Assembly: GCA_015065165.1 (NCBI GenBank)
Contig: SVQU01000008.1
Span: forward strand, 3,324 to 67,323
DNA: 64,000 nt
Origin: Oscillospiraceae bacterium
GTDB lineage: Bacteria > Bacillota > Clostridia > Oscillospirales > CAG-382
Reading direction: 5' to 3'
The position numbers were made by a program, and so were the translations under genes. This document shows positions 4,668 through 57,432 of the stretch, in pieces; the stretch's first letter is position 1; each line of letters opens with the position of its first letter. The notes beneath the pieces were generated by a model. It made no database searches. It saw only the letters and a list, made by a program, of their open reading frames with translations, and was not told the DNA's origin.

Positions 4668-5519
4668 TTATATAAACTCGTACATAAGTGAATTTTCCGG
4701 GATATAATCGTCTGTCAATTGAGGTACAGGCTTTAACACTTCGATAAAACGGCGGGCGATTTTATAATTAGGACTGTCGGGCATAACCTTTCCCAATTGG
4801 AAAATCGCATCGTCGTTTAAAATACTTCTTTCGTAAGGGAAGAAGGTATTTATAGCAATATCCGCATATTTTTCGAAGGGCTCGATAGACTCCACCTCGT
4901 TCGCCTTGATATTTTTCCAAAGGGCGAACAAATCCTCCGCATCCGAATTGCGGTGTCTTGAATCTCTAACCAAGCGGCGCACAAAGCGGCAATCCACGTC
5001 GTCCCCCGCATCGGCAAAAAGATAAATGCCGAATACCTGCTTTTTATCGGGTTCGGTTTCGAAAAGCGAAAGGTTCAAAGCGTGCAACCCCTCGATAATA
5101 ACCACGTCCTTTTCGCCCAGAGTAATTGTGCGATAACCGTCGGTACGGAAAGCAGTTTTAAAATCGAACATAGGTATAGGAGTTTCCTTACCCGCAAGAA
5201 GGCTTGTCATAGATTTTTTAATCAAATCCACGCGAAGGCTGTTTATAGATTCGATATCTCTTGTGCCGTCGGGCAAATAAACGCTTTCGTCCATATTGCG
5301 ATAGTAATCGTCCAAGGAAACCATATGGCAATTTCTTCCGCCGTCGCGAATAAGCTGAGAAAGCTTGCGCGTTGTGGTAGTTTTACCCGCGCAAGACCCC
5401 CCCGCAATAAGAATTATTTTATAATCGCGGTTGTTACAAATTTTATCGGCAATCGATTGCAAAGCGGTTTCATAGCTTTCTTCGTCCTTGCGTATTTGTT
5501 CAATTATGCTTTGATTCAA
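4668..5519 (-). CDS. Uridine kinase-family P-loop nucleoside kinase-like protein
   Basis: 283 aa with Walker A IAGGSCAGKTTT, then SLDDYY and VIIEGLHALN, which suggest a uridine/cytidine-kinase-like fold. Confidence 0.65.
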   Translation of the reverse strand: MNQSIIEQIRKDEESYETALQSIADKICNNRDYKIILIAGGSCAGKTTTTRKLSQLIRDGGRNCHMVSLDDYYRNMDESVYLPDGTRDIESINSLRVDLIKKSMTSLLAGKETPIPMFDFKTAFRTDGYRTITLGEKDVVIIEGLHALNLSLFETEPDKKQVFGIYLFADAGDDVDCRFVRRLVRDSRHRNSDAEDLFALWKNIKANEVESIEPFEKYADIAINTFFPYERSILNDDAIFQLGKVMPDSPNYKIARRFIEVLKPVPQLTDDYIPENSLMYEFI

Positions 5520-28549: not shown

Positions 28550-28879
28550 ATGGAAAGCAAAACCTTTACAAAAAACGACAGCGGATTTATCTGCGGGAAC
28601 TGCAAAAGAGAGGTTCCGCCTTTGGGATACAGCTCTCGAAATCATTGTCCCTTTTGTCTTTATTCCCGTCATCTTGATATAAACCCCGGGGACAGAGCCT
28701 CGGATTGCGGCGGTCTTATGCGCCCCGCGGCGGTTACTTCACACCCCAAAAAGGGGTTCGTAATCACACACAAATGTACTGTTTGCGGCGCGGAAAGAAA
28801 CAACAAGATGCAATCCGACGACGACACCTCGCTTTTGATAAAGCTCACCAACCCCTATTTTGCGGAGGAATATAAATGA
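28550..28879 (+). CDS. RNHCP-domain zinc-ribbon protein
   Basis: Contains the literal SSRNHCPFCL motif plus CGNC and CTVCG cysteine pairs. Start taken at ATG 28550 (MESKTF). Confidence 0.7.
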   Translation: MESKTFTKNDSGFICGNCKREVPPLGYSSRNHCPFCLYSRHLDINPGDRASDCGGLMRPAAVTSHPKKGFVITHKCTVCGAERNNKMQSDDDTSLLIKLTNPYFAEEYK

Positions 28880-29928
28880 CCTTTTTGAAAACGAAATTTA
28901 TCAAAGACAAGGCACATTATATAAACGCTCTTAAGACAATTTCGGTGGTTCTTCTGGCATTTATCGCCGCGGTTTTCTTTAGGCGGTCGGCGGGTGTTTT
29001 GGCAACCTTCCCCATCGCTTTTGCTCTTTGCGCCGTAAGCGCGTTTATAAACGTAAACCCAAAAATTAAACTTGCGGTTTTCGGCGTTACTGTTTTCGCT
29101 TTGAACACTGTTGAGAACACAGACACAAGGGTTTCATTAACCTTTACCGCATTATGTCTACTTGGCTGTTTGCTCTTTCAATTATCCGCAAGGGTTATAA
29201 GCAAGCGCAGGGCGGTCGGCGTTTGCGTTATGGCGGTATGCTTTGCTTTATGCATCGCTTTGAGCTTTGTTTTTGTGGGAAATCCTCTTTCGGCAATCAA
29301 GGCGAACCGTGTTTTAAACGGTTATATCGAAAGCAATTATCCAACCGCCGAAAACAGCGAATCCACCGAATATATTTTCACAAAAACCTATTATAATTAC
29401 AACACAAAAGCCTTTGAAAAGCAAGGCTACGGAAGCGACAGCCCCACCGAAATCGGCACTGTTTCGGCAAACGGCGAAACAGTAAACGACAGCCTGAAAT
29501 CTATCGTTCAAAAGAACCTTGCACAGCCGTATGTTCTTGAAATTACAGAGGTTTTGCGCAAACGTTTTCCCGACGACACGTTCTCGGTAAGCTTTGATGA
29601 AATATATAGGGAAAACGGAAAACAGGTTATCTCAGCAGAAAGAAACGGTCTTTACGGCAGAATTGTTTTCGAGATAAATCTGGGCGGTGTTCAGACCGCA
29701 AACAAAATGGCAGAAAAGGTTAAGCAATATACCGAGGTTCTGGATAACGCTAATATAAACTACGGCAAAATTATTTATAAAAGCGGTATCAGCCCTTGGG
29801 TGAAACGTTCTGCAACCGTTGACAAAAACCGCCCTATGGGACAATGCGTTTTCACCGTTTATCACGTCCCGATTTCCACCTCGAACCGGTTTAACCGTTT
29901 TGCAAAATGGGATTTTCAATTTAAATAA
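28876..29928 (+). CDS. Hypothetical membrane protein (about 4 TM helices plus a C-terminal soluble domain)
   Basis: 350 aa. The start overlaps the RNHCP stop (ATGA). It has hydrophobic N-terminal helices, and a terminator follows it. Confidence 0.55.
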   Translation: MTFLKTKFIKDKAHYINALKTISVVLLAFIAAVFFRRSAGVLATFPIAFALCAVSAFINVNPKIKLAVFGVTVFALNTVENTDTRVSLTFTALCLLGCLLFQLSARVISKRRAVGVCVMAVCFALCIALSFVFVGNPLSAIKANRVLNGYIESNYPTAENSESTEYIFTKTYYNYNTKAFEKQGYGSDSPTEIGTVSANGETVNDSLKSIVQKNLAQPYVLEITEVLRKRFPDDTFSVSFDEIYRENGKQVISAERNGLYGRIVFEINLGGVQTANKMAEKVKQYTEVLDNANINYGKIIYKSGISPWVKRSATVDKNRPMGQCVFTVYHVPISTSNRFNRFAKWDFQFK

Positions 29929-35646: not shown

Positions 35647-36201
35647 TTATACCCAGCCGTCGGACCAGCCGTCGCCCACAGGAGGATTAGAGGATTCGTA
35701 AGGGTCGCATTTATAGGCCTTGTTAATGTCGTAAGTGCCGAAGTAAGCGCGTTTAACCTTGATATAGTTCATAGCGCGGATATCATCGCCCTCCATAACC
35801 TCTGCCGCACGCATCGCGGTAGCCGTTAGATTGTACTGACCTAAAACCGCGCGCTTTACTGCAAGGTAATCCATAGAGCCCAAGTTTCCGTCGCCGTCAA
35901 CATCTCCCATAACAACCAAGTTATAGAACAGGTTGTTATTAAGGCGAATTTTAAAGCCTGTACCGATATTAACGTCGGCATCTGCGGCAACCTCTTGTTG
36001 ATTTTTGTTGTAAATTTTCACGTCGTAAGATGAAAAAATATCGCGAAGAACGGTTTGAGGTGTATTAAGACCTATGCCGCAAAGTCTGCCCGATTCTACA
36101 ACGGGTTTGAAATCGACAACCTTTGCCGATGCGGTAGCGGAAAACGCCGAAGAAATTAAAACAACGGCAAGAACCAAAGCCAGAACCTTTGAGAATTTCA
36201 T
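35647..36201 (-). CDS. Small secreted dockerin-domain protein
   Basis: Signal peptide ending in ATASA. It has two calcium-binding dockerin repeats, GDVDGDGNLGSMDYLAVKRAVLG and EGDDIRAMNYIKVKRAYFG. Confidence 0.8.
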   Translation of the reverse strand: MKFSKVLALVLAVVLISSAFSATASAKVVDFKPVVESGRLCGIGLNTPQTVLRDIFSSYDVKIYNKNQQEVAADADVNIGTGFKIRLNNNLFYNLVVMGDVDGDGNLGSMDYLAVKRAVLGQYNLTATAMRAAEVMEGDDIRAMNYIKVKRAYFGTYDINKAYKCDPYESSNPPVGDGWSDGWV

Positions 36202-37543: not shown

Positions 37544-38791
37544 TTAAATCGTTTGATTTCCGAAATAAACGCGCTTTAGGGTGATATAGTCCATAGAATC
37601 TATAACGCCGTTGAAGTTAACGTCGGCAACCCTGATATCTCTTATTATGTACTTGCCGAAATATGCGCGCTTGATAACGAAATAGTCCAAAGCGTCGATA
37701 ACGCCGTTGTTGTTAACGTCGCCCACCAAAGCGGGAGCAGGCGCAGGTGTAAGGGGTTCATCACCGCCAACAAAGGGAGGCGCGCAATCTAACGCATCGG
37801 TAATTTCAAAGCCTGCATTGGTAAGTGTAATCGCGCTGTCAAAATTACCCGTTGCTTCGATATTTACGTTGTAAATCGTAACCCTTTTGCCAACCTTTGC
37901 TTCGTCGGCAAATTTATCATAGTCCGCTTCGTTATCACAAGAAACACCGATGATATAGGATTCGGCAGGGATAACAACAGCGGATTTATCGCTTTCGACG
38001 GAAACGTCAAGGTCAACGTAAGAAATAATACCGTTCAAATCGGCAACAAGAATGGCAAAACCACTCATTTTATCTTGATTCTCGGTAGGGGTGCAAAATT
38101 TATTTACAAATTCGCCCACCGTGATATCTTCTTTTGCATAATAAACAAGGTTACTTATATCGTCGAGATAACCCGCAGTTGTCAGTCTGATTACATCATC
38201 GGGAAAGCTTTCGGGCATCGCAGGCTGTACCGAATATTTTATAACAACGCTTTCAAGCTCTATTTCAGCCATTGTTTCCAAGCCGGTGTTATAGGCAATA
38301 ACGTTATCGAAGCTGAATACAAGGTCGGTCAGCTTTGCATCTTTGTTAACCATAAAGGGAATGGTGATAACCAATTCATCATCGTTTACAACCGTTGCTT
38401 CGCCCATAATATCCGAAAAAGCAAGGCTGTAAAAGCCTTCGTTGGAATCCAAAACACCAAAGCCCTCCCAATCGCCGGGGTTGGCTGTCATAAGGCTTCC
38501 GAAATCACCTGCATCGCCATCCGAATCCTCGGAAGCGGTAACAAGAGGTGAAAGCATCTCTTTGTCGTAATAAAGCTCGAATTCCAAAGCGGAAATGCCG
38601 TCGCCCTCGCCGAAATTAACGTCGCGCAGAGCGAGAACAAGATTGATTTCACTGTTAGAGTTATAATAATCAGAGGTGTTTTCGGTGCATACCGAAAAGG
38701 TCTTTGTATCATCCGTAACGGTAGCGGTTGCCACAACGAACAGGGGTGCAACCACAAGCAACGCCAGGAGGATTGCCAAAAGCTTTTTCAT
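37544..38791 (-). CDS. Secreted cohesin-like plus dockerin protein (adaptor/scaffoldin-like)
   Basis: Signal peptide. The N-terminal module has a cohesin-like pattern (ISALEFELYYDKEML...FYSLAFSD...ELVITIPFMVNKDAKLTDLVFSF). The C-terminal dockerin reads GDVNNNGVIDALDYFVIKRAYFG...ADVNFNGVIDSMDYITLKRVYFG. Confidence 0.7.
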   Translation of the reverse strand: MKKLLAILLALLVVAPLFVVATATVTDDTKTFSVCTENTSDYYNSNSEINLVLALRDVNFGEGDGISALEFELYYDKEMLSPLVTASEDSDGDAGDFGSLMTANPGDWEGFGVLDSNEGFYSLAFSDIMGEATVVNDDELVITIPFMVNKDAKLTDLVFSFDNVIAYNTGLETMAEIELESVVIKYSVQPAMPESFPDDVIRLTTAGYLDDISNLVYYAKEDITVGEFVNKFCTPTENQDKMSGFAILVADLNGIISYVDLDVSVESDKSAVVIPAESYIIGVSCDNEADYDKFADEAKVGKRVTIYNVNIEATGNFDSAITLTNAGFEITDALDCAPPFVGGDEPLTPAPAPALVGDVNNNGVIDALDYFVIKRAYFGKYIIRDIRVADVNFNGVIDSMDYITLKRVYFGNQTI

Positions 38792-44050: not shown

Positions 44051-46723
44051 ATGCAGGAAAACAATAATATACCCTCTGAAAACACTATGGATTTCCCCAC
44101 GGTAAATCAAGAGGAAAACAAAGGCGCCACAAAACAATTCGACGTTGTGGAGCCCGAAGAAACCGAGCTTGAAACCAAGCCGAAGAAAAAGAAAACCAAA
44201 ACCGCCAGAGCCGCAAAATTCGCCGCCTCGGGCGTGTTGTTCACGGTGAGAAAGATTTTAACCTATACCCTCAACGTGGTTTTGACTTTGCTTTTGGTGG
44301 GCATTATCACAGGCTGTACCGTTGGGCTTGCTTTTATCGTTTATATTAAAAACTACGTAGACCCTCATTACGACGGTTTGAGCAACCTAAAGTTCGACTC
44401 TGCCCAATCTACCACCATTTATTACAAAGACGACAAAGGCAAAGAGGTTATGTTAGAGGGGGACACTTTAAAATCCTCTGAAAACCGTCTTTGGGCGGAA
44501 TATGAGGATATTCCCCAGATGCTTATCGACGCCTATATCGCCGTGGAGGACCAGCGTTTTCTTTCCCACAACGGTGTTGATACAACAAGAACCGCATCGG
44601 CGATTTATAACTTCTTTATCCCCACAAGCTCTAACTACGGCGGCGGCTCGACAATTACCCAACAGCTTATTAAAAACGTTTCGGGTGATAACCAAACCAC
44701 TATTCAGCGAAAGGTTCAGGAAATTTTCCGCGCCTTCGACGTTGAAAGCAAATATACAAAATCCGAAATTCTGGAAATGTATCTGAACACCATTTACCTT
44801 TCCCACAATTCCTATGGCATACGTGTTGCCGCGCAAACCTATTTCGGCAAGGAGTTAGACGAGCTTACTCTTACCGAATGCGCCGCAATTGCATCTATCG
44901 GTAAATGGCCCATAAACTATGACCCTATCGTTAACCCACAGAACAATCTTGAAAGACGAAACCTTGTTTTAAAGCTTATGCTTGAGCAAGAAAAGATTAC
45001 CCAAGAGCAATTTAACGAAGCATACGATATCCCTCTTAAGCTGGCTGACGGTACGGAAGAAGAATATTCCGAAACCATCCACTCCTATTATATCGATGCG
45101 GTTATGGATGACGTTATTGCCGACCTTATGGAAAAATACGGTTATGACAAAACCACCGCATCCTATATGCTTTATTCCGGCGGCTTGGAGATTATCACCT
45201 GTATGGACCCTGTCATTCAGGAATGTGCCGAAAAGGTTTATACCGACAAAAACTATTGGCCCGAAAACAAGGGTATGCAAGCCCAATCGGCAATTTGCAT
45301 AATGGACCCCGCCAGCGGTGATATACTCGCCTTGGTGGGCGGCTTGGGCGAAAAGAAGGAAAGCCGCGGATTCAACCGCGCAACCCACGCCTACCGTCAA
45401 TGCGGTTCGTCCATAAAGCCTGTTTCGGTTTACGCTTTGGCGATAGAATCGGGTCTTTACAACGGCGGCGATTCGGTTGATGACGTCCCTCAGGGATATA
45501 ACCCCACCACGGGCGACCATTGGCCCTCCAACGCGGGCAGAAGCTATCGCGGCAGGGTTTCGCTGGACTATGCAATTCAGGCATCCCTTAACACCGTTGC
45601 GGTTTCTACCTGTAACACCCTGGGTGTTGACAGAGTTTTCGAAAACTTCAGGTCCTACGGATATACCACCCTTGTAGAATCCAAAACCCTAGATAACGGC
45701 ATGGTTGTTTCGGATAAGGGCGCATCCCCCTTGGCGTTGGGCGGTCTTACCTATGGCGTTACCGTCCGCGAGCATACCCAAGCCTATGCAACCCTTGCAA
45801 ACAGCGGTATCACCTCCAAGGCGAGAACCTATTCGTTAGTACGCGACAGCCGCGGAGTTGTTATCCTTGACAACCGCGAACAGCACGAGGTTAAATACAG
45901 CGAAAGCACCGCGGCGATAATGACCAACCTTTTAACCCACGTTGTCAGCGGCCCCAACGGTACTGCGAGAAATTACGTTAAAATCGACGATAATTTCGGC
46001 GTTCAGGTTGCGGCAAAAACGGGTACAACCAACGACAACCGCGACGTTTATTTCTGCGGTTATACCCCCGATTTGCTGGCAAGCGTTTGGTATGGCTATG
46101 ACAACAACAAAACCGTTTCCCACGGGAACGCGGCGACGGTATTGTGGGAATCTGTATTTAACGAAATCTATACCTATTACCGCGAAAACGGCATTGAGTT
46201 TAAACAAAACTTCTCTTATCCCGCCTCGGTGGTAACCGACGTGGAATATTGCACCGTTTCGGGCAAAATCCCCACGGAAGCCTGCAGAAAAGACCTTTAC
46301 CATATGCAGGGCGGTTCAAGCTGTATCGCAACGGGGGCATTTAACGTAAACAACGTCCCCACCGAATATTGCGACAGCCACGTTATGGTAAAATGGGATA
46401 AGCAAACAGGCGGTGTTTGTGTTGACGGCTGTGCCTGCCCCGATGGAAATATTATAAACGTAGGCTTGCGCCGAATGAGCTTTGAAGACCGTTATTTAGA
46501 CGGCAGAGCCTATATCGGCGACGCGCAATACGTTTATATGGACGTTCCCGCGGGTTACAAATACCCCACCGACCCCGACGTGCCCTTCTATCGCAATATG
46601 CTTAATGACGATACAAAATACGTGTTTGGTATTTCCACCAGCACAAGACCTGCCAACCGCGTTTGTACCGAGCATTATAATTTAATCCCCGAAACCCCCG
46701 AAACCTCGGAAATTACCCAATAA
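44051..46723 (+). CDS. Class A penicillin-binding protein (PBP1A-type transglycosylase/transpeptidase)
   Basis: TM anchor, GT51 motif EDQRFLSHNGVD, and transpeptidase motifs SSIKP, SLN and KTGTT. ATG 44051 lies 10 nt after GGAG (track start is 44021). Confidence 0.93.
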   Translation: MQENNNIPSENTMDFPTVNQEENKGATKQFDVVEPEETELETKPKKKKTKTARAAKFAASGVLFTVRKILTYTLNVVLTLLLVGIITGCTVGLAFIVYIKNYVDPHYDGLSNLKFDSAQSTTIYYKDDKGKEVMLEGDTLKSSENRLWAEYEDIPQMLIDAYIAVEDQRFLSHNGVDTTRTASAIYNFFIPTSSNYGGGSTITQQLIKNVSGDNQTTIQRKVQEIFRAFDVESKYTKSEILEMYLNTIYLSHNSYGIRVAAQTYFGKELDELTLTECAAIASIGKWPINYDPIVNPQNNLERRNLVLKLMLEQEKITQEQFNEAYDIPLKLADGTEEEYSETIHSYYIDAVMDDVIADLMEKYGYDKTTASYMLYSGGLEIITCMDPVIQECAEKVYTDKNYWPENKGMQAQSAICIMDPASGDILALVGGLGEKKESRGFNRATHAYRQCGSSIKPVSVYALAIESGLYNGGDSVDDVPQGYNPTTGDHWPSNAGRSYRGRVSLDYAIQASLNTVAVSTCNTLGVDRVFENFRSYGYTTLVESKTLDNGMVVSDKGASPLALGGLTYGVTVREHTQAYATLANSGITSKARTYSLVRDSRGVVILDNREQHEVKYSESTAAIMTNLLTHVVSGPNGTARNYVKIDDNFGVQVAAKTGTTNDNRDVYFCGYTPDLLASVWYGYDNNKTVSHGNAATVLWESVFNEIYTYYRENGIEFKQNFSYPASVVTDVEYCTVSGKIPTEACRKDLYHMQGGSSCIATGAFNVNNVPTEYCDSHVMVKWDKQTGGVCVDGCACPDGNIINVGLRRMSFEDRYLDGRAYIGDAQYVYMDVPAGYKYPTDPDVPFYRNMLNDDTKYVFGISTSTRPANRVCTEHYNLIPETPETSEITQ

Positions 46724-46740
46724 CCCTTGAAAAACCAAGA

Positions 46741-46780
46741 AAATACCCAAGTTGTTAATAACGATAACTTGGGTATTTTT
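46741..46780 (+). terminator. Intrinsic terminator after the PBP gene (left edge of the AT-rich island)
   Basis: 13-bp perfect stem AAATACCCAAGTT / AACTTGGGTATTT running into a T-run. Confidence 0.85.
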
Positions 46781-46815
46781 GGTTGTGAAAAAAATTTTTT
46801 AAAAAATTTTTCAAC

Positions 46816-46856
46816 TTTTTTATAGAGGTTTTGCCGTTTTTCGACATTTATATATA
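46816..46856 (+). promoter_or_regulatory. Promoter-like 41-nt motif, copy 1, upstream of the sigma-factor gene
   Basis: TTTTTTATAGAGGTTTTGCCGTTTTTCGACATTTATATATA, about 48 nt before the GTG start. It matches copy 2 at 35 of 41 positions by hand alignment, including an uninterrupted 20-nt block. Confidence 0.5.
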
Positions 46857-46903
46857 GATGCAGTATTTATATATAGAAAATACTTTAAAGGAGGTAACGT
46901 GCT

Positions 46904-47410
46904 GTGAATAACGACGTGGACAAAGTGTCTTTAACCAAAGAAGACGCGTTGTTTATTGCAAAATTGATAGAAGAAAACAAAACGCATATAAAAAACGTTG
47001 TTTATAGCACGTTGGGAACCACCTATCACTATCTTGCCAACGATACCATAAGCGAGCTTTATTTACTTTTGTGCGAAAAGGTGGAAATTTTAAAAACCCA
47101 TTCCGCCCCGGACGCTTGGATATTGGTTGCGGCAAAACGCACTGCCCTGGGGATGATGGCGAAGCACCGAAAGGATTTGTTAACCGTCCCGTTGGTAGAA
47201 GCCGTTAACAAAGGCAACGATTCTGACGTTTGCGATACGGCATTGTACGAAGTTTGGCTGGAAAACAACGTCCCCGCAAGGCTTATTGCCAGACTAACCA
47301 AGCGGGAACAGGAAGTTTATCACAAAATTTATATCGAGGGCAAAAAGGCAACGGAGGTTGCAAAAGAACTGAATGTTTCGGCAAGCACCGTACATAATAT
47401 ATGCATTTAG
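46904..47410 (+). CDS. Sigma-70-family (ECF-like) RNA polymerase sigma factor, C-terminus cut off inside region 4.2
   Basis: GTG start 9 nt after AAAGGAGG. Region 2-like DAWILVAAKRTAL. The region 4 HTH, LTKREQEVYHKIYIEGKKATEVAKELNVSASTVHNI, is followed by only CI-stop. The sense reading is lost after 47401. Confidence 0.75.
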   Translation: MNNDVDKVSLTKEDALFIAKLIEENKTHIKNVVYSTLGTTYHYLANDTISELYLLLCEKVEILKTHSAPDAWILVAAKRTALGMMAKHRKDLLTVPLVEAVNKGNDSDVCDTALYEVWLENNVPARLIARLTKREQEVYHKIYIEGKKATEVAKELNVSASTVHNICI

Positions 47411-47842
47411 CGTTACTTTGCTTATGAAATCATATTCAGCAAATAAAGCCTTTACTTCTTCGGGAGTATAGAAGTTTGCGGTTGTTATGGTGTAATCATA
47501 TTTATTGGGTTCGTATTTCAATAATTCGGGATATACAACTTGTGCACAGTTAATATTCAAAATTTCTACGCCGAGGAAGTCTGCCAATTCGCCATCCTTA
47601 TATTCGGAAATATCTAACTCTTTATTCGAAACGAATAATATTTGGTTTGGAATGCATCTGTTTTCATCAAGATAATATAAAGGAGTACGCCAACCGTCTT
47701 TTAGATAGTACTCGATAGCGTAACCATATTCTTTTGCGATTTCTTCGTTAGGTGTTAAAGATTTCAACGTTGCGGCATTAGTTGTGATACAGCAAGCCGT
47801 AAGCATAATAAGCGCGCATAATAAAGCAATCATTTTTTTCAT
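47294..47842 (-). CDS. Secreted or lipoprotein-like protein. The native part is 47402..47842. The last 35 codons are antisense read-through of the sigma gene
   Basis: Signal peptide MKKMIALLCALIMLTAC (possible lipobox LTAC). Plausible sequence runs up to ...AEYDFISKVTLNA. Beyond that comes a Cys/Phe-rich nonsense-like tail that overlaps the sigma ORF by 117 nt. Confidence 0.6.
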   Translation of the reverse strand: MKKMIALLCALIMLTACCITTNAATLKSLTPNEEIAKEYGYAIEYYLKDGWRTPLYYLDENRCIPNQILFVSNKELDISEYKDGELADFLGVEILNINCAQVVYPELLKYEPNKYDYTITTANFYTPEEVKALFAEYDFISKVTLNAYIMYGACRNIQFFCNLRCLFALDINFVINFLFPLG

Positions 47843-47948
47843 AGTTAAATTCCTTTCTTAGATATATTCTCTAATATAAATATATGTCTAAATATTTTGT
47901 TTGATGAATTTTAAAAATAGTATTTATATGTTATTTTGTATATGTTTT

Positions 47949-48408
47949 TTAGATGGGAGGGAAATAGCAGGTTGAGTAATAGAAGCCCAAAATCATATCC
48001 ACGTCGGTGGTGTCAACAACGTTATCTTTGTTAACGTCAGCGGCATAAAGCTGGTCTGCGGTAGCGGTCATTGTTCCGTTTGCAATACGTTGTGCAAACA
48101 TTTTGTCCATAGATGTTATTTCACCGTCGCCGGTTACGTCGCCCTTGCTGTATGCTACTCTCTCTTCAGCATATAACGCATGCATCAACGTCCAAAACTT
48201 GGTCTACGTTGGCAATAATCTGGTTGATAACCATGTTGTTTGCATCTAAAATGTATTCTTCGCCTGGAGCAATAACCATTGTGCGGTAATCGGGGTTTGC
48301 CGCGAGGATTCTGGCGGTTTGGCTTGCAGGCTCTGCCGAGATTGAGTTAACACCAAAGGTGCAAACCAATAAACCTAAAACGAGGATTAATGAAAGCAAT
48401 TTTTTCAT
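47949..48408 (-). pseudogene. Frameshifted gene for a small secreted dockerin protein (ORFs 48166..48408 plus 47949..48188)
   Basis: The upstream ORF has a signal peptide (MKKLLSLILVLGLLVCTFGVNSISA). The downstream ORF, in another frame, encodes a full dockerin (GDVTGDGEITSMD...ADVNKDNVVDTTDVDMILG). The ORFs overlap by 23 nt, and the frame switch must lie between about 48170 and 48205. Confidence 0.65.
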
Positions 48409-48561
48409 AATTTGATTTCCTTTCTTTTTTGTTTCTTTGTTTTTGTTGTTTTTCGGACGTTTTTTATTTTGCCCCTCGTCCGTTTGTGGGCAATATATAA
48501 TTAATGTCGGTTTCTATATTACCCCTCCTAACTTGTTTTTGCTGGGGTTTCTTGCCCCTTC

Positions 48562-48602
48562 ACTATATAAATGTTAAAAAGTGGCAAAACCTCTATAAAA
48601 AA
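48562..48602 (-). promoter_or_regulatory. Promoter-like 41-nt motif, copy 2, upstream of the frameshifted dockerin gene
   Basis: Reverse strand reads TTTTTTATAGAGGTTTTGCCACTTTTTAACATTTATATAGT. It lies directly after the terminator of the preceding minus-strand operon and about 155 nt before the ATG at 48408. Confidence 0.5.
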
Positions 48603-48644
48603 CTTATAAAAAATTTTAAATTTTTTTATAACAGAACTAATAGA

Positions 48645-48684
48645 AATAAAAAACACCGCCAAGGGGTTTAAATCCTTGGCGGTG
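48645..48684 (-). terminator. Intrinsic terminator after the 133-aa secreted-protein gene
   Basis: 11-bp stem CACCGCCAAGG / CCTTGGCGGTG followed, on the minus strand, by TTTTTTATTT. Confidence 0.8.
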
Positions 48685-48777
48685 TATATGGGGATTATAT
48701 TCCATATATAAAATAAGGTTAAAAACAATTAAATTCACCCTTGGGTAAAGGTGGGGGATATGTATTACTTCTATGCT

Positions 48778-49179
48778 TTAATCGCAGCAGAAAATATCTT
48801 CCGAATAAAGCCAAGTTTCTTCATGAAAATCACAATCTTCGCAAGTTTTAATTTCATAAACATCATCTACGCATCTTGGCGCACTGGAATAAACTTTATG
48901 TGTAGTAACGCGTGCTGTGTCATATAAATAATCGTGTCCGAAAAGTATACAGCCCAAGCCATAGGTTTGTGCAGAATCATCCTTGCCGAAAACCAAGTTC
49001 TCGGCAATTCTCTGTTGCTGTTCTGCCGAAAGGTTGTTGCCCTCGAAGGTAACGGTGTAATGTGCATCTTTGGTTTCGAAGTTATATGTGTTACCGCTTG
49101 CGTTTTCTGCCGATGCAACAACACAAATGGTGGTCATTAGAATTAAAGTGCAAATTAAAATACTTAAAGCTTTTTTCAT
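48778..49179 (-). CDS. Small secreted Cys-containing hypothetical protein
   Basis: 133 aa with a signal peptide ending VVASA and a C-terminal cysteine cluster (CEDCDFHEE...FCCD). Its ATG overlaps the upstream stop (ATGA). Confidence 0.6.
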   Translation of the reverse strand: MKKALSILICTLILMTTICVVASAENASGNTYNFETKDAHYTVTFEGNNLSAEQQQRIAENLVFGKDDSAQTYGLGCILFGHDYLYDTARVTTHKVYSSAPRCVDDVYEIKTCEDCDFHEETWLYSEDIFCCD

Positions 49180-50039
49180 TTTTCAATCTCCTTTAAATTA
49201 TCAATAATTAAAATTAAATCCTCATAATTTCCAGCCTGTATAGAATAATAATCCCCATTATAATAACTAACTGCACAATAGAGGGCATTGTTCCTTTGGT
49301 AAACGTGATATTTTACTTCATTTATTACATAGAATTCATCTTGGTCTTCCCATTGATATTGATTGGGAGCGTTTCTCTCTATACCTATGCTTATATTTTT
49401 GTCGTTGGTAATCATATAGATATGATCGTTTCCTCGTGAACTTTTATCTAACATTATTTTGTCGATTTTAACATTTTCGGGGAATTTTGTAGGGTATAGA
49501 ATATCCCAGTTTTTTTCTTCTATTATTTCTTCTAAGGAAGAATAATATTTAGCTTCACCGCTGTGATAGAAGGTAAAACCCTCGATATCCTTTTTTGCAC
49601 CGTCTTCTTCCAAAGATATTTTATAAAGCTCTTCTAAAATATTCACCCCAAAGGCACTTGCAACGCCCACTGTTGCGGTGGTTAGAATTATAACCACAGC
49701 GGCAATAACGGCAATACGCTTTAACAAAACACGCGCCCTTGGAGCCCTGCGGACTGCCGATTTATTATCGGTTATAACAACGTGTTCTTTTTCTGCCTTT
49801 TTAACAATCGCCATAAATTCTTCGTCCGACATAGGGGCGGGGGCGATTTTATCCAACAAATCCGAGCATTGGTGAATCAAATCCAAATCCCCTTCGTCAA
49901 AACAAAGCATATCGATTTCATAATTCATCAGCTTTTGCAAGGCGGAGGTATTAAGCTCTTGGATATTCAATTCTTTTGCTTTGATCATCGCCTTGATTTC
50001 TTTTGCGGTTAGATTATCAAGCATATTTTTATCTATCAA
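49176..50039 (-). CDS. Single-pass membrane protein, putative anti-sigma factor (DUF4367-like ectodomain)
   Basis: 287 aa with a cytoplasmic N-terminal region of about 105 aa, a TM helix IAVIAAVVIILTTATVGVASAF, and a C-terminal extracytoplasmic domain. TTG start 7 nt after GGAGG. On the minus strand it lies 48 nt downstream of the detached sigma 3' end. Family name is from memory. Confidence 0.5.
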   Translation of the reverse strand: MIDKNMLDNLTAKEIKAMIKAKELNIQELNTSALQKLMNYEIDMLCFDEGDLDLIHQCSDLLDKIAPAPMSDEEFMAIVKKAEKEHVVITDNKSAVRRAPRARVLLKRIAVIAAVVIILTTATVGVASAFGVNILEELYKISLEEDGAKKDIEGFTFYHSGEAKYYSSLEEIIEEKNWDILYPTKFPENVKIDKIMLDKSSRGNDHIYMITNDKNISIGIERNAPNQYQWEDQDEFYVINEVKYHVYQRNNALYCAVSYYNGDYYSIQAGNYEDLILIIDNLKEIEK

Positions 50040-50087
50040 GTTATTACCTCCTTACTTAATAAATGTTAATTAACGTTGAAATAAAGC

Positions 50088-50141
50088 CTAAAAATTTCTG
50101 TTCTTTACGTCGTCTGTTATTTTGTCCCTTAGGTTCTTGTG
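50088..50141 (-). pseudogene. Detached 3' end of the sigma-factor gene (17 codons plus stop)
   Basis: Reverse strand reads CAC AAG AAC CTA AGG GAC AAA ATA ACA GAC GAC GTA AAG AAC AGA AAT TTT TAG, which is HKNLRDKITDDVKNRNF-stop. Joined to ...STVHNI it completes a canonical region 4.2 helix. Confidence 0.65.
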
Positions 50142-50369
50142 TATTTTGAACCCGCATTGGAAGTAGAAGAAGTTCCCTGCGACGTTAACTTTGACAACAA
50201 CTTCGACACAATGGACTATATCACCGTTAAGCGCGCTTACTTCGGCACCTATAACGAAGCTGATATGTATTGCAACAAGGGCGACCTTAACAACAACCTC
50301 GAAATCGATGCTGTTGACAGCGCACTTATGAAGCGTGCTTACTTCGACACCTTCAACGTTGAACAGTAA
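50142..50369 (+). pseudogene. Detached dockerin module (3' part of the gene whose 5' part is 47402..47842 on the minus strand)
   Basis: YFEPALEVEEVPCDVNFDNNFDTMDYITVKRAYFG...GDLNNNLEIDAVDSALMKRAYFD is a complete two-repeat dockerin. It has no signal peptide, no Shine-Dalgarno sequence and no ATG. The track start at 50139 is a GTG with no RBS. Confidence 0.65.
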
Positions 50370-50467
50370 TTAAAAAACAACGTTTGTTTAAATTAAACCT
50401 TCAAAAATCAAAATACTAAAACAGACTTTTCATTTTCAGTCTTTTCAATTTTTAGTGCATCCCAAAC

Positions 50468-50499
50468 AAAAGACCGAGGGGTTAAACCCTCGGTCTTTT
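50468..50499. terminator. Bidirectional intrinsic terminator (right edge of the island)
   Basis: 13-bp perfect stem AAAAGACCGAGGG / CCCTCGGTCTTTT with a GTTAAA loop. Confidence 0.85.
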
Positions 50500-50505
50500 G
50501 TTTGC

Positions 50506-50895
50506 TTATTTAGACGGATAAAAATATAGTCTTGTGCCCGATATTTCAAAATCGGGGTTATATATATCCTTAACGTTAATGGCAAAATAATCCTTTTCGA
50601 AAATAGCAACGCCCGAAATATAGGTTTCGGTTTCGTCAACGTTGGTTATCGAAACCTTATCGTCCGCGCCGAACACCACCGAAACGGGAATTTCATTTTG
50701 GTTTTTATCAACAAAAACCCCGTTGGTAATCTTACCGTCGGAAGACACCGAAAAGCTTATTTCCACCTCTTTGCAACTCCATTTGCTGTTTGGGCGGTCA
50801 AGGGGGCGTTTGACCTCTCCGCAACCCGCAACCATAAAGCAAAACGCAACAACAAGCAACAAAGAAATTAGTTTAATTTTCATTTTCATTTTCAT
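50506..50895 (-). CDS. Hypothetical lipoprotein
   Basis: 129 aa with signal peptide and lipobox LLLVVAFCFMVAGC. Confidence 0.65.
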   Translation of the reverse strand: MKMKMKIKLISLLLVVAFCFMVAGCGEVKRPLDRPNSKWSCKEVEISFSVSSDGKITNGVFVDKNQNEIPVSVVFGADDKVSITNVDETETYISGVAIFEKDYFAINVKDIYNPDFEISGTRLYFYPSK

Positions 50896-50913
50896 AAACA
50901 GTACTCAACCAAT

Positions 50914-51315
50914 TTACAGCTCCTTGAAAAATTCGACAATCTCGCCGTCGGGACCATAAACAAAGGCAATTCGCATTGTTAAAGGGGCGGTTGGGTTTTC
51001 GGGGCTTACTGTTACGGGCGCGGTTTTGGGCTGTGCGCCCGATTTTACCGCTATGTCAAAGGCGTTATCCACATCATCAACACGCAAAGCGATATGATAA
51101 AACCGTTTATCAACGGTTTCGCTTTTTTCACCGTCGGCGAAAATTTCAAGGCAGTTACCGTCGCCGAAATCCAGCATAACGGCACGGCCGTTACCCTCGC
51201 CCCAAGCCACCTTTTCGGTCAATCCAAGGGATTTATAAAAAGAAACGGTTTTATCAAAATTTGTACTTTTAAGAGCGATATGATGAACGCCCATACCTTT
51301 TATAATATTGTTCAT
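50914..51315 (-). CDS. VOC-family (glyoxalase/bleomycin-resistance fold) protein
   Basis: 133 aa with GVHHIALKSTNFDKTVSFYKSLGL and HIALRVDDVD, which suggest paired beta-alpha-beta-beta-beta modules. Confidence 0.8.
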   Translation of the reverse strand: MNNIIKGMGVHHIALKSTNFDKTVSFYKSLGLTEKVAWGEGNGRAVMLDFGDGNCLEIFADGEKSETVDKRFYHIALRVDDVDNAFDIAVKSGAQPKTAPVTVSPENPTAPLTMRIAFVYGPDGEIVEFFKEL

Positions 51316-55815: not shown

Positions 55816-57432
55816 TTACCGAATAACATAGGTTGCGAAATAAACACGCTTAAGAAGTGCATAGTCTACCGAGTCTATCTCATCGTTTTTATTAACGTCG
55901 CCGATTGTATTATCCGACAGCGCATAAGCACCGAAATAGGCACGTTTAAGAAGCATATAGTCGGTAGAATCAATTTCTTCATTACCGTTAATATCGCCGA
56001 TAAACAATACAGAGTTGATAGTTATTTTTGCGGTTGCAGAATAGGTGGTACCCTTGGTTTTATGGGTTGCGGTAACCGTTACCCAATAGGTACCCGCATC
56101 TACAGGGGCAGAAGAAAGCTTTGCGCCCACACTGCCGCCGTTGTCATTATACCAAACAGAGGTGAAATTATAATCACTCACGTTGCCGTTTTCAAGGGTG
56201 TAAACAACGTCCGCATTAGATTCGCCAACGGTGAGAGCGATTCCGTTATAATCTCTGTCGGTGGTGGCAAGAACAACGTTGGGAGTCGCAGGAACGTAAT
56301 CGGCAGAGGAAAGAGTTAAAATACTTTCGCTGTCGGTGCCCCAAAGCATTTTTGTTCCGTCGTCATAAATATAAGTAAGAGTTGTGGAAAGATAAGCCTT
56401 ATAACCTGCCGAAACCGAACCCGTAAGACCGTTGAGGAAAAGACCGCCGTCCTCACCCACAGAGCCGCTGTCGCTGTTGGTGGTATCCACCATATAGTTT
56501 TTACCGTCATCCATTGTAACGATATTCCACATATGGCCGCCGCCGTTGGTTGTGCCCACAACCGAATAGCAAACGATGTCCTCACTTTGGAAATCCGACA
56601 TATCGCAAAGATATTGGAAGCCCTTGGAATATCCCTCGCAAACAACCTTGGTGGAAGCATCGCCGTCGAAAATATGAATTAACTGCCAAGGGTCGCCATA
56701 GTCAGGATTTGCTTCCTCCAAAACCTCGAAGTTATAATCGGTAAGAGCGCAGATTTCATCGCGATAGGCAACCAATTTGTCATAATCGCCGTAGGAGGCG
56801 TATTTATTAACGATAGCCTTTGCGTTGGCAACCGATTTTGAAACCGTTTGTCCTACAGAAACCACGGGGGCGTCGGGGTTATAGTTTGTGGCTTGATAAC
56901 CCGTGCTTACGCTCATAACCGCAACGATTTTGGTAATTCTGTTACCAAGCGTACCTGCGCCAAAGCCATAGCCTTGGGTTTTATCAAACCAATAAAGGTC
57001 ATAGGGACAGTCGTTTAACAATGCCTCGAAAATTGCTTGGTGGTCAAATTGAGCAAAGAAGTTATTTACAGGGTCAGAGGTAAAAGAGGTTTTTACTCCT
57101 GTCCAGTTTGCCAATTCGGTAGAAGAAGCGTTAAACGTTGCAGAGGTTTGCTCCCCGCTTGCAACCTTTTCGATATTGGATTTCATCCAATCGTAGAAAT
57201 ATTGGTCAACCGAAGAAAGACGCTCTCTTGCAGAAACACCCCAGAAAGAAAACTCTCGCTCGGGGAAAAATGCATTTTCAACGTAACCCGCGAAAAGCTC
57301 GGAATTGTCGGGGAACTCAACATCGGGAACGTATCGGTTCATAACCAATTCCTCGGTTTCGGCAAAGGCGCCGAAGGGAACAGACATAACAAGAACAACT
57401 GTACAGATAAGCAAGGATAAAACGCGTTTCAT
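55816..57432 (-). CDS. Secreted transglutaminase-like (papain-fold Cys-His-Asp) protein with an Ig-like domain and a C-terminal dockerin
   Basis: Signal peptide. Core motifs are VVCEGYSKGFQYLC (Cys), GGGHMWNIV (His) and YMVDTTNSD (Asp). The dockerin reads GDINGNEEIDSTDYMLLKRAYFG...GDVNKNDEIDSVDYALLKRVYFA. Confidence 0.7.
   Translation of the reverse strand: MKRVLSLLICTVVLVMSVPFGAFAETEELVMNRYVPDVEFPDNSELFAGYVENAFFPEREFSFWGVSARERLSSVDQYFYDWMKSNIEKVASGEQTSATFNASSTELANWTGVKTSFTSDPVNNFFAQFDHQAIFEALLNDCPYDLYWFDKTQGYGFGAGTLGNRITKIVAVMSVSTGYQATNYNPDAPVVSVGQTVSKSVANAKAIVNKYASYGDYDKLVAYRDEICALTDYNFEVLEEANPDYGDPWQLIHIFDGDASTKVVCEGYSKGFQYLCDMSDFQSEDIVCYSVVGTTNGGGHMWNIVTMDDGKNYMVDTTNSDSGSVGEDGGLFLNGLTGSVSAGYKAYLSTTLTYIYDDGTKMLWGTDSESILTLSSADYVPATPNVVLATTDRDYNGIALTVGESNADVVYTLENGNVSDYNFTSVWYNDNGGSVGAKLSSAPVDAGTYWVTVTATHKTKGTTYSATAKITINSVLFIGDINGNEEIDSTDYMLLKRAYFGAYALSDNTIGDVNKNDEIDSVDYALLKRVYFATYVIR

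Follow-up and report, generated by a model that had tools for sequence, protein, structure and literature searches.

The 64-kb stretch of an Oscillospiraceae contig (SVQU01000008.1) analyzed here, referred to below as the window, is core chromosome (yabP/yabQ, divIC, relA, recJ, smc, ftsY, topA, dprA, murB, whiA, dnaE and the gene for a class A penicillin-binding protein (PBP)). It harbors a small island in which a sigma-factor gene and a gene for a dockerin-bearing protein, called dockerin gene B, are each divided into two parts that lie on opposite strands at the two ends of a 2740-bp segment. Re-inversion of this segment in silico joins both pairs of parts in frame, which yields a sigma factor of 183 residues and a dockerin protein of 222 residues, and renders the island co-linear. 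The breakpoints, 47401/47402 and 50141/50142, follow from this re-inversion and from a blastn alignment with a relative, L002 (NCBI contig JAZSMK010000016.1, assembly GCA_045535835.1). The features that define the rearrangement, each with the evidence on which it was assigned, are:

47402..50141, no strand: inverted segment, 2740 bp (in-silico re-inversion, blastn break against L002, collinearity of the restored island)
47399..47401, no strand: junction core of 3 nt, left copy, ATA (complement of the TAT at 50142-50144)
46904..47401, plus strand: 5' part of the sigma gene, codons 1-166 of 183 (list of open reading frames (ORFs), translation, TIGR02937 score)
50088..50141, minus strand: orphaned 3' end of the sigma gene, codons 167-183 and stop (translation, tblastn, conserved motif)
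49176..50039, minus strand: anti-sigma-like gene, 287 residues, one membrane span (all 8 related loci have a homologue immediately 3' of the sigma gene, same strand)
48778..49179, minus strand: gene for a secreted protein of 133 residues, third in the sigma operon (follows the anti-sigma gene in loci L002, L011 and L014)
47402..47842, minus strand: 5' part of gene B, codons 1-147, signal peptide and N-terminal domain (alignment with P0026, P0028 and the 216-residue protein of L002; five full-length homologues)
50142..50369, plus strand: orphaned 3' part of gene B, codons 148-222 and stop, linker and two-repeat dockerin (re-inversion, Pfam, alignment)

The split genes and their relatives

The plus-strand sigma ORF (46904..47410) reads ...SASTVHNI (...KELNVSASTVHNI) up to 47401 and then ends with C-I-stop. 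The reverse complement of 50141..50088 reads HKNLRDKITDDVKNRNF-stop, and tblastn places sigma residues 166-183 at 50144..50091 with 100% identity. Against TIGR02937, the model of the extracytoplasmic function (ECF) superfamily (cut-off 42.9), the restored protein scores 49.6 bits and the truncated one 41.5; both Pfam families Sigma70_r4_2 and Sigma70_r4 exceed their cut-offs in the restored form. The restored protein is thus a two-domain sigma2-sigma4 protein that passes the superfamily model, i.e., an ECF-type (group 4) sigma-70 factor. A search with it returned 22 proteins, composed of its own truncated 168-residue form, one partial match of 163 residues and otherwise proteins of 182-196 residues, and the motif NIHKNLRDKI..D.K.KNF is nearly invariant across the join in all 13 aligned homologues of 182-196 residues. 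In the AlphaFold model of the closest full-length homologue, P0002 (carried by L002; 81% identity, mean predicted local distance difference test score 75), the final helix comprises residues 160-179. The break falls after residue 166, and the truncated protein lacks the last 17 residues; by this model, the region-4 recognition helix is thereby deprived of 13 of its 20 residues. The top Foldseek matches of the P0002 model are the ECF sigma factors SigL, SigK, sigmaE, SigH, AlgU and SigW, with weak E-values of 1e-3 to 1e-2.

Gene B shows the mirror image of this damage. The minus-strand ORF 47842..47294 reads ...FISKVTLNA down to 47402 and then continues as the antisense of the sigma gene, i.e., the 5' part of gene B is now fused to 35 antisense-sigma codons in a chimeric ORF of 182 residues (47294..47842). 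From 50142 onward, the plus strand encodes YFEPALEVEEVPCDVNFDNN..., in which Pfam PF00404 identifies a dockerin that lacks its own start. In the restored protein of 222 residues, Dockerin_1 is found at residues 161-212 (23.6 bits, cut-off 22.9), and the linker is as long as that of the paralogue P0026. The protein is covered to 95-100% by five homologues of 216-234 residues, and the nearest dockerin protein is 68% identical. With an N-terminal signal-peptide-like sequence and a C-terminal two-repeat module, a layout that the homologues have as well, it is a Type I dockerin protein. The restored junctions contain ...CATAATATACACAAGAACC... and ...CTAAATGCATATTTTGAACC..., the joins falling between ...GCACCGTACATAATATA and CACAAGAACCTAAGG... 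and between ...GTAACGCTAAATGCA and TATTTTGAACCCGC...

The segment carries the sigma gene's own downstream genes. On the minus strand, the sigma stop is followed at a distance of 48 nt by GGAGG and the TTG start codon of the anti-sigma gene, and a homologue of this 287-residue membrane protein directly follows the sigma gene in 8/8 related loci, as would be expected of a co-transcribed cognate anti-sigma factor. The protein matches no Pfam or NCBIfam family, and a protein search with it in the metagenome_contigs collection found no relative.

In L002, the genes for PBP1, the sigma factor (183 residues), the anti-sigma factor (287 residues), the 133-residue protein and a dockerin protein (216 residues) follow one another on one strand; beyond the dockerin gene, a gene for a 127-residue protein and a radical S-adenosylmethionine gene on the other strand form the same flanks as in the window. 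The blastn alignment between the two keeps 88% identity until it stops at exactly 47401; it resumes in inverted orientation at 50147 and regains the direct orientation at 50172. Once re-inverted, the island matches L002 in two pieces that are collinear. At the restored left junction this alignment is ungapped, and no mismatch occurs in the 10 nt preceding and the 28 nt following the join, hence no base was lost or gained there. Seven further loci (L007 and L011-L016), annotated as uncultured Ruminococcus, Eubacteriales and Clostridia metagenome-assembled genomes, each have the anti-sigma gene immediately 3' of a full-length sigma gene and in the same orientation, i.e., the two genes are co-linear in all eight related loci. 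Because L002 and these seven loci are uninverted, the co-linear state is ancestral and the inversion peculiar to the lineage of the window.

The first-pass annotation, made from the letters of the window only, had proposed that the truncated sigma gene and a distant minus-strand C-terminus form a protein of about 183 residues, that the minus-strand ORF and the plus-strand dockerin form one of 222 residues, and that a single pair of breakpoints repairs both genes in frame and leaves the island co-linear. The first proposal is borne out by homologues that run through the join and the second by the five full-length homologues of 216-234 residues, while re-inversion, homologues and the syntenic relative together confirm the third; the GGAGG and TTG start that it had placed 48 nt beyond the sigma stop are present in the sequence. 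Comparison with related genomes and alignment to homologues, which had been set as tests beforehand, both support the inversion, with full-length matches that span both joins.

The exact chimeric 182-residue ORF was found on 23 contigs (17 from JGI and 6 from ENA/NCBI), all of at least 20 kb and 22 of them of 50-200 kb, and in all 23 the orientation is the inverted one. Three fetched loci, located on two contigs (one from JGI and one from ENA), match the window at 100% identity over 7.8-9.5 kb, and both junction 40-mers are present in them. The flanking core genes are found on 22-23 contigs, none of the 23 breaks at the junctions, and every contig of the strain therefore carries the inversion. 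As their sequences are identical, these contigs reflect reproducible assembly and not independent evolutionary origins. A 24-mer flank common to both orientations gave 0 matches in the metagenome_contigs and genome_contigs collections, and neither of the two therefore holds this strain.

Promoter motif, dockerin gene A and a paralogous cassette

The island also contains repeated promoter-like sequences, terminators and a second dockerin gene, and further genes of cellulosome type are found elsewhere in the window:

46791..46854, plus strand: promoter-like repeat copy 1, 5' of the sigma gene (core ATAGAGGTTTTGCC, 7 nt, CGACATTTATATA)
48564..48627, minus strand: promoter-like repeat copy 2, 5' of dockerin genes A and B (same core)
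48653..48685, minus strand: intrinsic terminator, hairpin and T-run, after the gene for the 133-residue protein (-22.4 kcal/mol, z = -6.3)
50463..50504, plus strand: terminator closing the island, 18-pair stem (-32.2 kcal/mol, z = -7.7)
47949..48408, minus strand: dockerin gene A, two overlapping ORFs (80 residues with signal peptide; 79 residues with dockerin and without signal peptide)
37544-38791, 55816-57432 and 35647-36201, all minus strand: other cellulosome-type genes, outside the island

The promoter core is found exactly at 46822 (plus strand) and 48583 (minus strand), and the two copies form an inverted pair of 64 nt with 81% complementarity. The motif is kept 5' of both the sigma and the dockerin genes in L002 (~2640-2700 and ~4730-4800; 88% nucleotide identity). 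The version TTTTTTATAGAGGTTTTGCC, 7 nt, CGACATTTATATA is seen at these positions in both the window and L002, while a related ATAGAC...CGACATAT form is found in a paralogous cassette (L007) described below. The motif is a candidate recognition sequence for this ECF family, and the sigma factor may be autoregulated and also drive the dockerin genes, where the suggested control of the latter follows from the shared promoter only. Core matches number three in the window, compared with 0.74 expected by shuffling, and two of the three are true sites. The third, a near-match with 2 mismatches (ACAGAGGTTTTGCG; 29545-29558, plus strand), resides inside an ORF (28876..29928) and is probably due to chance. 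A search for direct repeats as promoter duplicates in L011, L013, L014 and L016 was uninformative. The terminators and the repeated promoter motif had been recognized in the first reading of the sequence, and both withstood analysis: the two hairpins fold well and the motif is present twice. The terminator at 50463..50504 is palindromic and could act in both directions.

Dockerin_1 is detected on the second, 79-residue ORF of gene A (E = 2e-9), which suggests that the gene carries a frameshift of 1 nt within the 40-nt stretch between 48166 and ~48205; the split is called likewise in L001, L005 and L006. When the related loci were searched with gene A using tblastn, only a generic dockerin matched. 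Gene A and its spacer are absent from L002, where the ribosome-binding site and start region of the single dockerin gene (L002 4913-4952) align to the starts of both gene A (48388-48408) and gene B (47843-47860). Gene A would thus be either a local duplication or insertion in the lineage of the window, or the subject of a deletion in L002.

An intact paralogous cassette, apparently at another locus of the same organism, is found at 6329-8705 of L007/L008 and encodes a sigma factor of 184 residues, an anti-sigma factor of 291 residues and a dockerin protein of 234 residues (P0026). Its anti-sigma factor and dockerin protein are 58% and 63% identical to those of the window, respectively, while the sigma factors are only 33% identical. 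The dockerin module of the paralogue is ~94% identical in protein and clusters at ≥90% with the 76-residue fragment of the window, which may be a sign of module shuffling or of gene conversion between the two cassettes. At the nucleotide level, the dockerin sequence common to both begins to the right of the junction, at a distance of 24 nt, and is exact over at most 87 nt. The paralogous cassette may provide redundancy, such that loss of the module in the window is tolerated.

The G+C content of the island (46500-51000) is below that of its flanks (31-44% per 500 nt, compared with 44-53% nearby), and that of the inverted segment is 35.9%, compared with 44.6% for the whole window. The cellulosome-type genes outside the island encode a protein of 415 residues with cohesin and dockerin, a dockerin protein of 538 residues and, at 35647-36201, an ORF of 184 residues with a dockerin-like C-terminus by tblastn. 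Evidently, the source organism is a cellulosome producer.

Origin and consequences of the inversion

The junctions share little sequence. The microhomology amounts to 3 nt on the outer side (ATA/TAT) and 0 on the inner side, with P(≥3) = 0.038 for random pairs of positions; the first-pass annotation had named this ATA/TAT core, which stands, but its upper estimate of 4 nt (AATA) does not. In-register complementarity around the junctions is 12/50 (random mean 12.6), the longest exact inverted repeat within 25 nt on either side of them is 5 nt (random mean 5.5), and pairwise matches between the four half-sites are 3-7 out of 20, with a sum of 29 (30.3 ± 5 at random), i.e., there is no dyad and no mutual similarity. 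Neither the inverted repeats of an inverton at the segment ends nor the imperfect dyad of half-sites around a core that characterizes the att sites of large serine recombinases was found. This sequence evidence excludes the kind of site architecture on which recombinases of the tyrosine, small-serine or large-serine type would be expected to act. A screen of the 64-kb window, covering its called genes and its long ORFs, found no recombinase or transposase family, and a cognate invertase is likewise not found within it. These repeat statistics and family screens agree with the original observation that the junctions have no long inverted repeats and the window no recombinase.

The arrangement is very probably the result of a one-off illegitimate inversion that became fixed in one clone of a lineage of gut or rumen Clostridia. 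Ancestrally, the plus strand would have carried two units, one composed of an autoregulated promoter, the genes for the ECF-type sigma factor (183 residues), the membrane anti-sigma factor (287 residues) and the 133-residue secreted protein, and a terminator; the other composed of a second copy of the promoter, dockerin genes A and B (the latter encoding 222 residues) and a terminator. In the ancestor of the clone, a single reciprocal, base-conservative inversion of 2740 bp, without dependence on homology or a specific site, would have broken the sigma gene at codon 166/167 and the linker of gene B at codon 147/148, after which the segment would have been rejoined in reverse at the 3-nt ATA/TAT overlap. 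Such a reciprocal conservative exchange fits topoisomerase-type illegitimate recombination (subunit exchange), replication template switching or a similar process.

By the inversion, gene B loses its dockerin, and the genes for the anti-sigma factor and the 133-residue protein are cut off from the sigma promoter. The truncated sigma factor would no longer bind its -35 element, so that both its own promoter and that of genes A and B would fall silent. The whole module is most likely a recent pseudo-operon, and gene A, with its apparent frameshift, would fit a module in decay. The locus would thus be a natural example of a single structural mutation that inactivates a regulator, its target and its autoregulation together.

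Several observations weigh against a one-off event. The orphaned fragments are intact pieces of ORFs, which fits a recent event but also a maintained switch, and a lossless reciprocal exchange is what a recombinase or topoisomerase would produce. An event at 3 bp is of a rarer kind, as spontaneous inversions that were verified in chemostat cultures of Salmonella shared 12 bp or more at their junctions (PMC3411829). The screen for recombinases covers the window only, and a minority of cells may carry the restored orientation, given that the counts were obtained from assembled contigs. Furthermore, with fetched loci identical to the window and identical proteins on all 23 contigs, the contigs look like one clone, perhaps from one study, and the term "fixed" therefore refers to that clone and not to the species. 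The frameshift in gene A is without support from homologues: a search with the fused protein returned nothing, but this negative says little, as the exact 80-residue ORF is in the collection (P0032).

An unlikely alternative is that the inversion is real but was selected, because loss of the module, or release of the anti-sigma and 133-residue genes from control by the sigma factor, was advantageous in its habitat, e.g., by shedding a costly cellulosome accessory. The inversion is found in every contig of the clone, one event disables regulator, target and autoregulation together, and the intact paralogous cassette remains, all of which would be expected if loss were favored. However, a single clone offers nothing by which selection could be separated from drift or hitch-hiking, and no new promoter is evident for the anti-sigma gene, the region containing 14 sigma-70-like matches compared with 14.6 in shuffled sequence.

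A programmed, reversible inversion (phase variation or developmental), in which the recombinase is encoded elsewhere in the genome and the assemblies capture the OFF state, is distinctly improbable. Such a switch would account for two joins that are exact and in frame with no base lost, and for orphaned fragments that have not decayed; in addition, intragenic invertons occur in gut bacteria, where the invertases are often unlinked (PMC10028968). However, the junctions share only 3 nt and display no inverted repeat, dyad or half-site similarity above random, and no recombinase is found in the 64-kb window. One orientation is seen in 23/23 contigs, none of which breaks at the junctions, and no restored allele was found among ~15 billion proteins, where nothing exceeds 81% identity to the 183-residue protein or 68% to the 222-residue protein. 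Moreover, the related loci are co-linear in 8/8 cases with no trace of an invertible element, and the ON state would be nothing but the ordinary ancestral operon. A specific form of this explanation, in which an unlinked recombinase that needs only a 2-3-nt core, and no inverted repeats that could be recognized, toggles the ECF sigma/anti-sigma/dockerin module by dividing and rejoining the sigma gene, reversibly or on a developmental trigger, and public assemblies represent a majority OFF state, is more improbable still; if true, a reversible switch alone would bear on a larger question, i.e., that of repeat-independent programmed inversions. The inverted pair of 64 nt and 81% complementarity was considered as a recombination substrate and rejected, as it is a promoter duplicate located well away from the junctions. 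The choice between a reversible and a one-off event, originally left open, is now mostly settled in favor of the latter, the switch being without support, although reversal at low frequency may occur.

An assembly artefact, i.e., a misjoin in a genome that is in reality co-linear, was also left undecided at first and is now so unlikely as to be nearly negligible: the source is metagenomic, the paralogous cassette matches the dockerin region exactly over stretches of up to 87 nt and the island contains a 64-nt imperfect repeat, but the junctions fall in no repeat, all 23 contigs agree, identical junctions are found in JGI contigs and in ENA k141 contigs (named in MEGAHIT style), the lengths of the contigs differ (103,500, 99,894, 100,756 and 104,264 nt), and a de Bruijn assembler would not be able to make two reciprocal junctions without spanning reads. 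A misassembly by way of the paralogous cassette was rejected, as the shared sequence lies 24 nt off the junction and extends over at most 87 nt, and synteny with L002 continues on both sides.

With a one-off illegitimate inversion as the best explanation, the deposited 168-residue "sigma", 182-residue "hypothetical protein" and 76-residue "dockerin" are fragments or chimeras that should be flagged as pseudogenes. The undamaged relatives outline a small cassette family in Oscillospiraceae of rumen and gut, composed of ECF sigma, anti-sigma and dockerin genes; its members share a promoter motif and may constitute a cellulosome-regulating circuit.

Comparison with known systems

Cellulosome genes of Clostridium thermocellum are controlled by SigI/RsgI pairs of sigma and anti-sigma factors. 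The undamaged module resembles these pairs in that an alternative sigma factor is co-transcribed with a membrane anti-sigma factor and the same promoter motif precedes the sigma and dockerin genes. In contrast to SigI/RsgI, the sigma factor matches TIGR02937 and not SigI, the anti-sigma factor is without a Pfam or NCBIfam family, and neither the SigI nor the RsgI family is found among the Pfam or NCBIfam matches.

In Bacillus subtilis, sigK is interrupted by skin, a foreign insertion of 48 kb that encodes SpoIVCA, the recombinase for its excision in the mother cell; similar intervening elements are known from sporulation genes. The likeness is that a sigma gene is split by DNA rearrangement into halves that can be rejoined in frame. 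Unlike skin, the intervening DNA of the present locus is the sigma gene's own downstream operon turned around: it encodes the anti-sigma factor, the 133-residue protein and dockerin genes but no recombinase, and is collinear with L002 when re-inverted. Unlike sigK, the gene encodes an ECF-type and not a sporulation sigma factor, and there is no recombinase and no att-like site. This native operon bears out the original caution that the sigK/skin analogy was unsupported.

Illegitimate recombination mediated by gyrase or topoisomerases is also known, as are invertible elements. With the latter (Hin, Fim and the Bacteroides invertases; PMC10028968), the locus shares a segment of a few kb, endpoints within coding sequence and two alternative sets of ORFs. 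Known invertons, including the intragenic ones, need inverted repeats, which span 11 nt in the thiC example (PMC10028968); while invertons have repeats recognized by an invertase and coexisting orientations, the present segment lacks repeats, an invertase is absent from the window, and 23/23 contigs agree in orientation.

The inversion also resembles spontaneous chromosomal inversions by illegitimate or short-homology recombination, which have been detected genome-wide in Salmonella chemostats, the experimentally verified cases sharing 12 bp or more at the junctions (PMC3411829). As in those, neither a dedicated recombinase nor a dedicated site takes part, two unrelated positions undergo reciprocal exchange, both endpoints lie in genes that are thereby disrupted and the change is irreversible in practice. 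The differences are that the overlap is 3 nt rather than at least 12 nt, that both ends lie inside one regulatory module and that the inversion is fixed in a natural clone. In sum, the inversion is an instance of a known category of gene-killing mutation, with no indication of a programmed switch.

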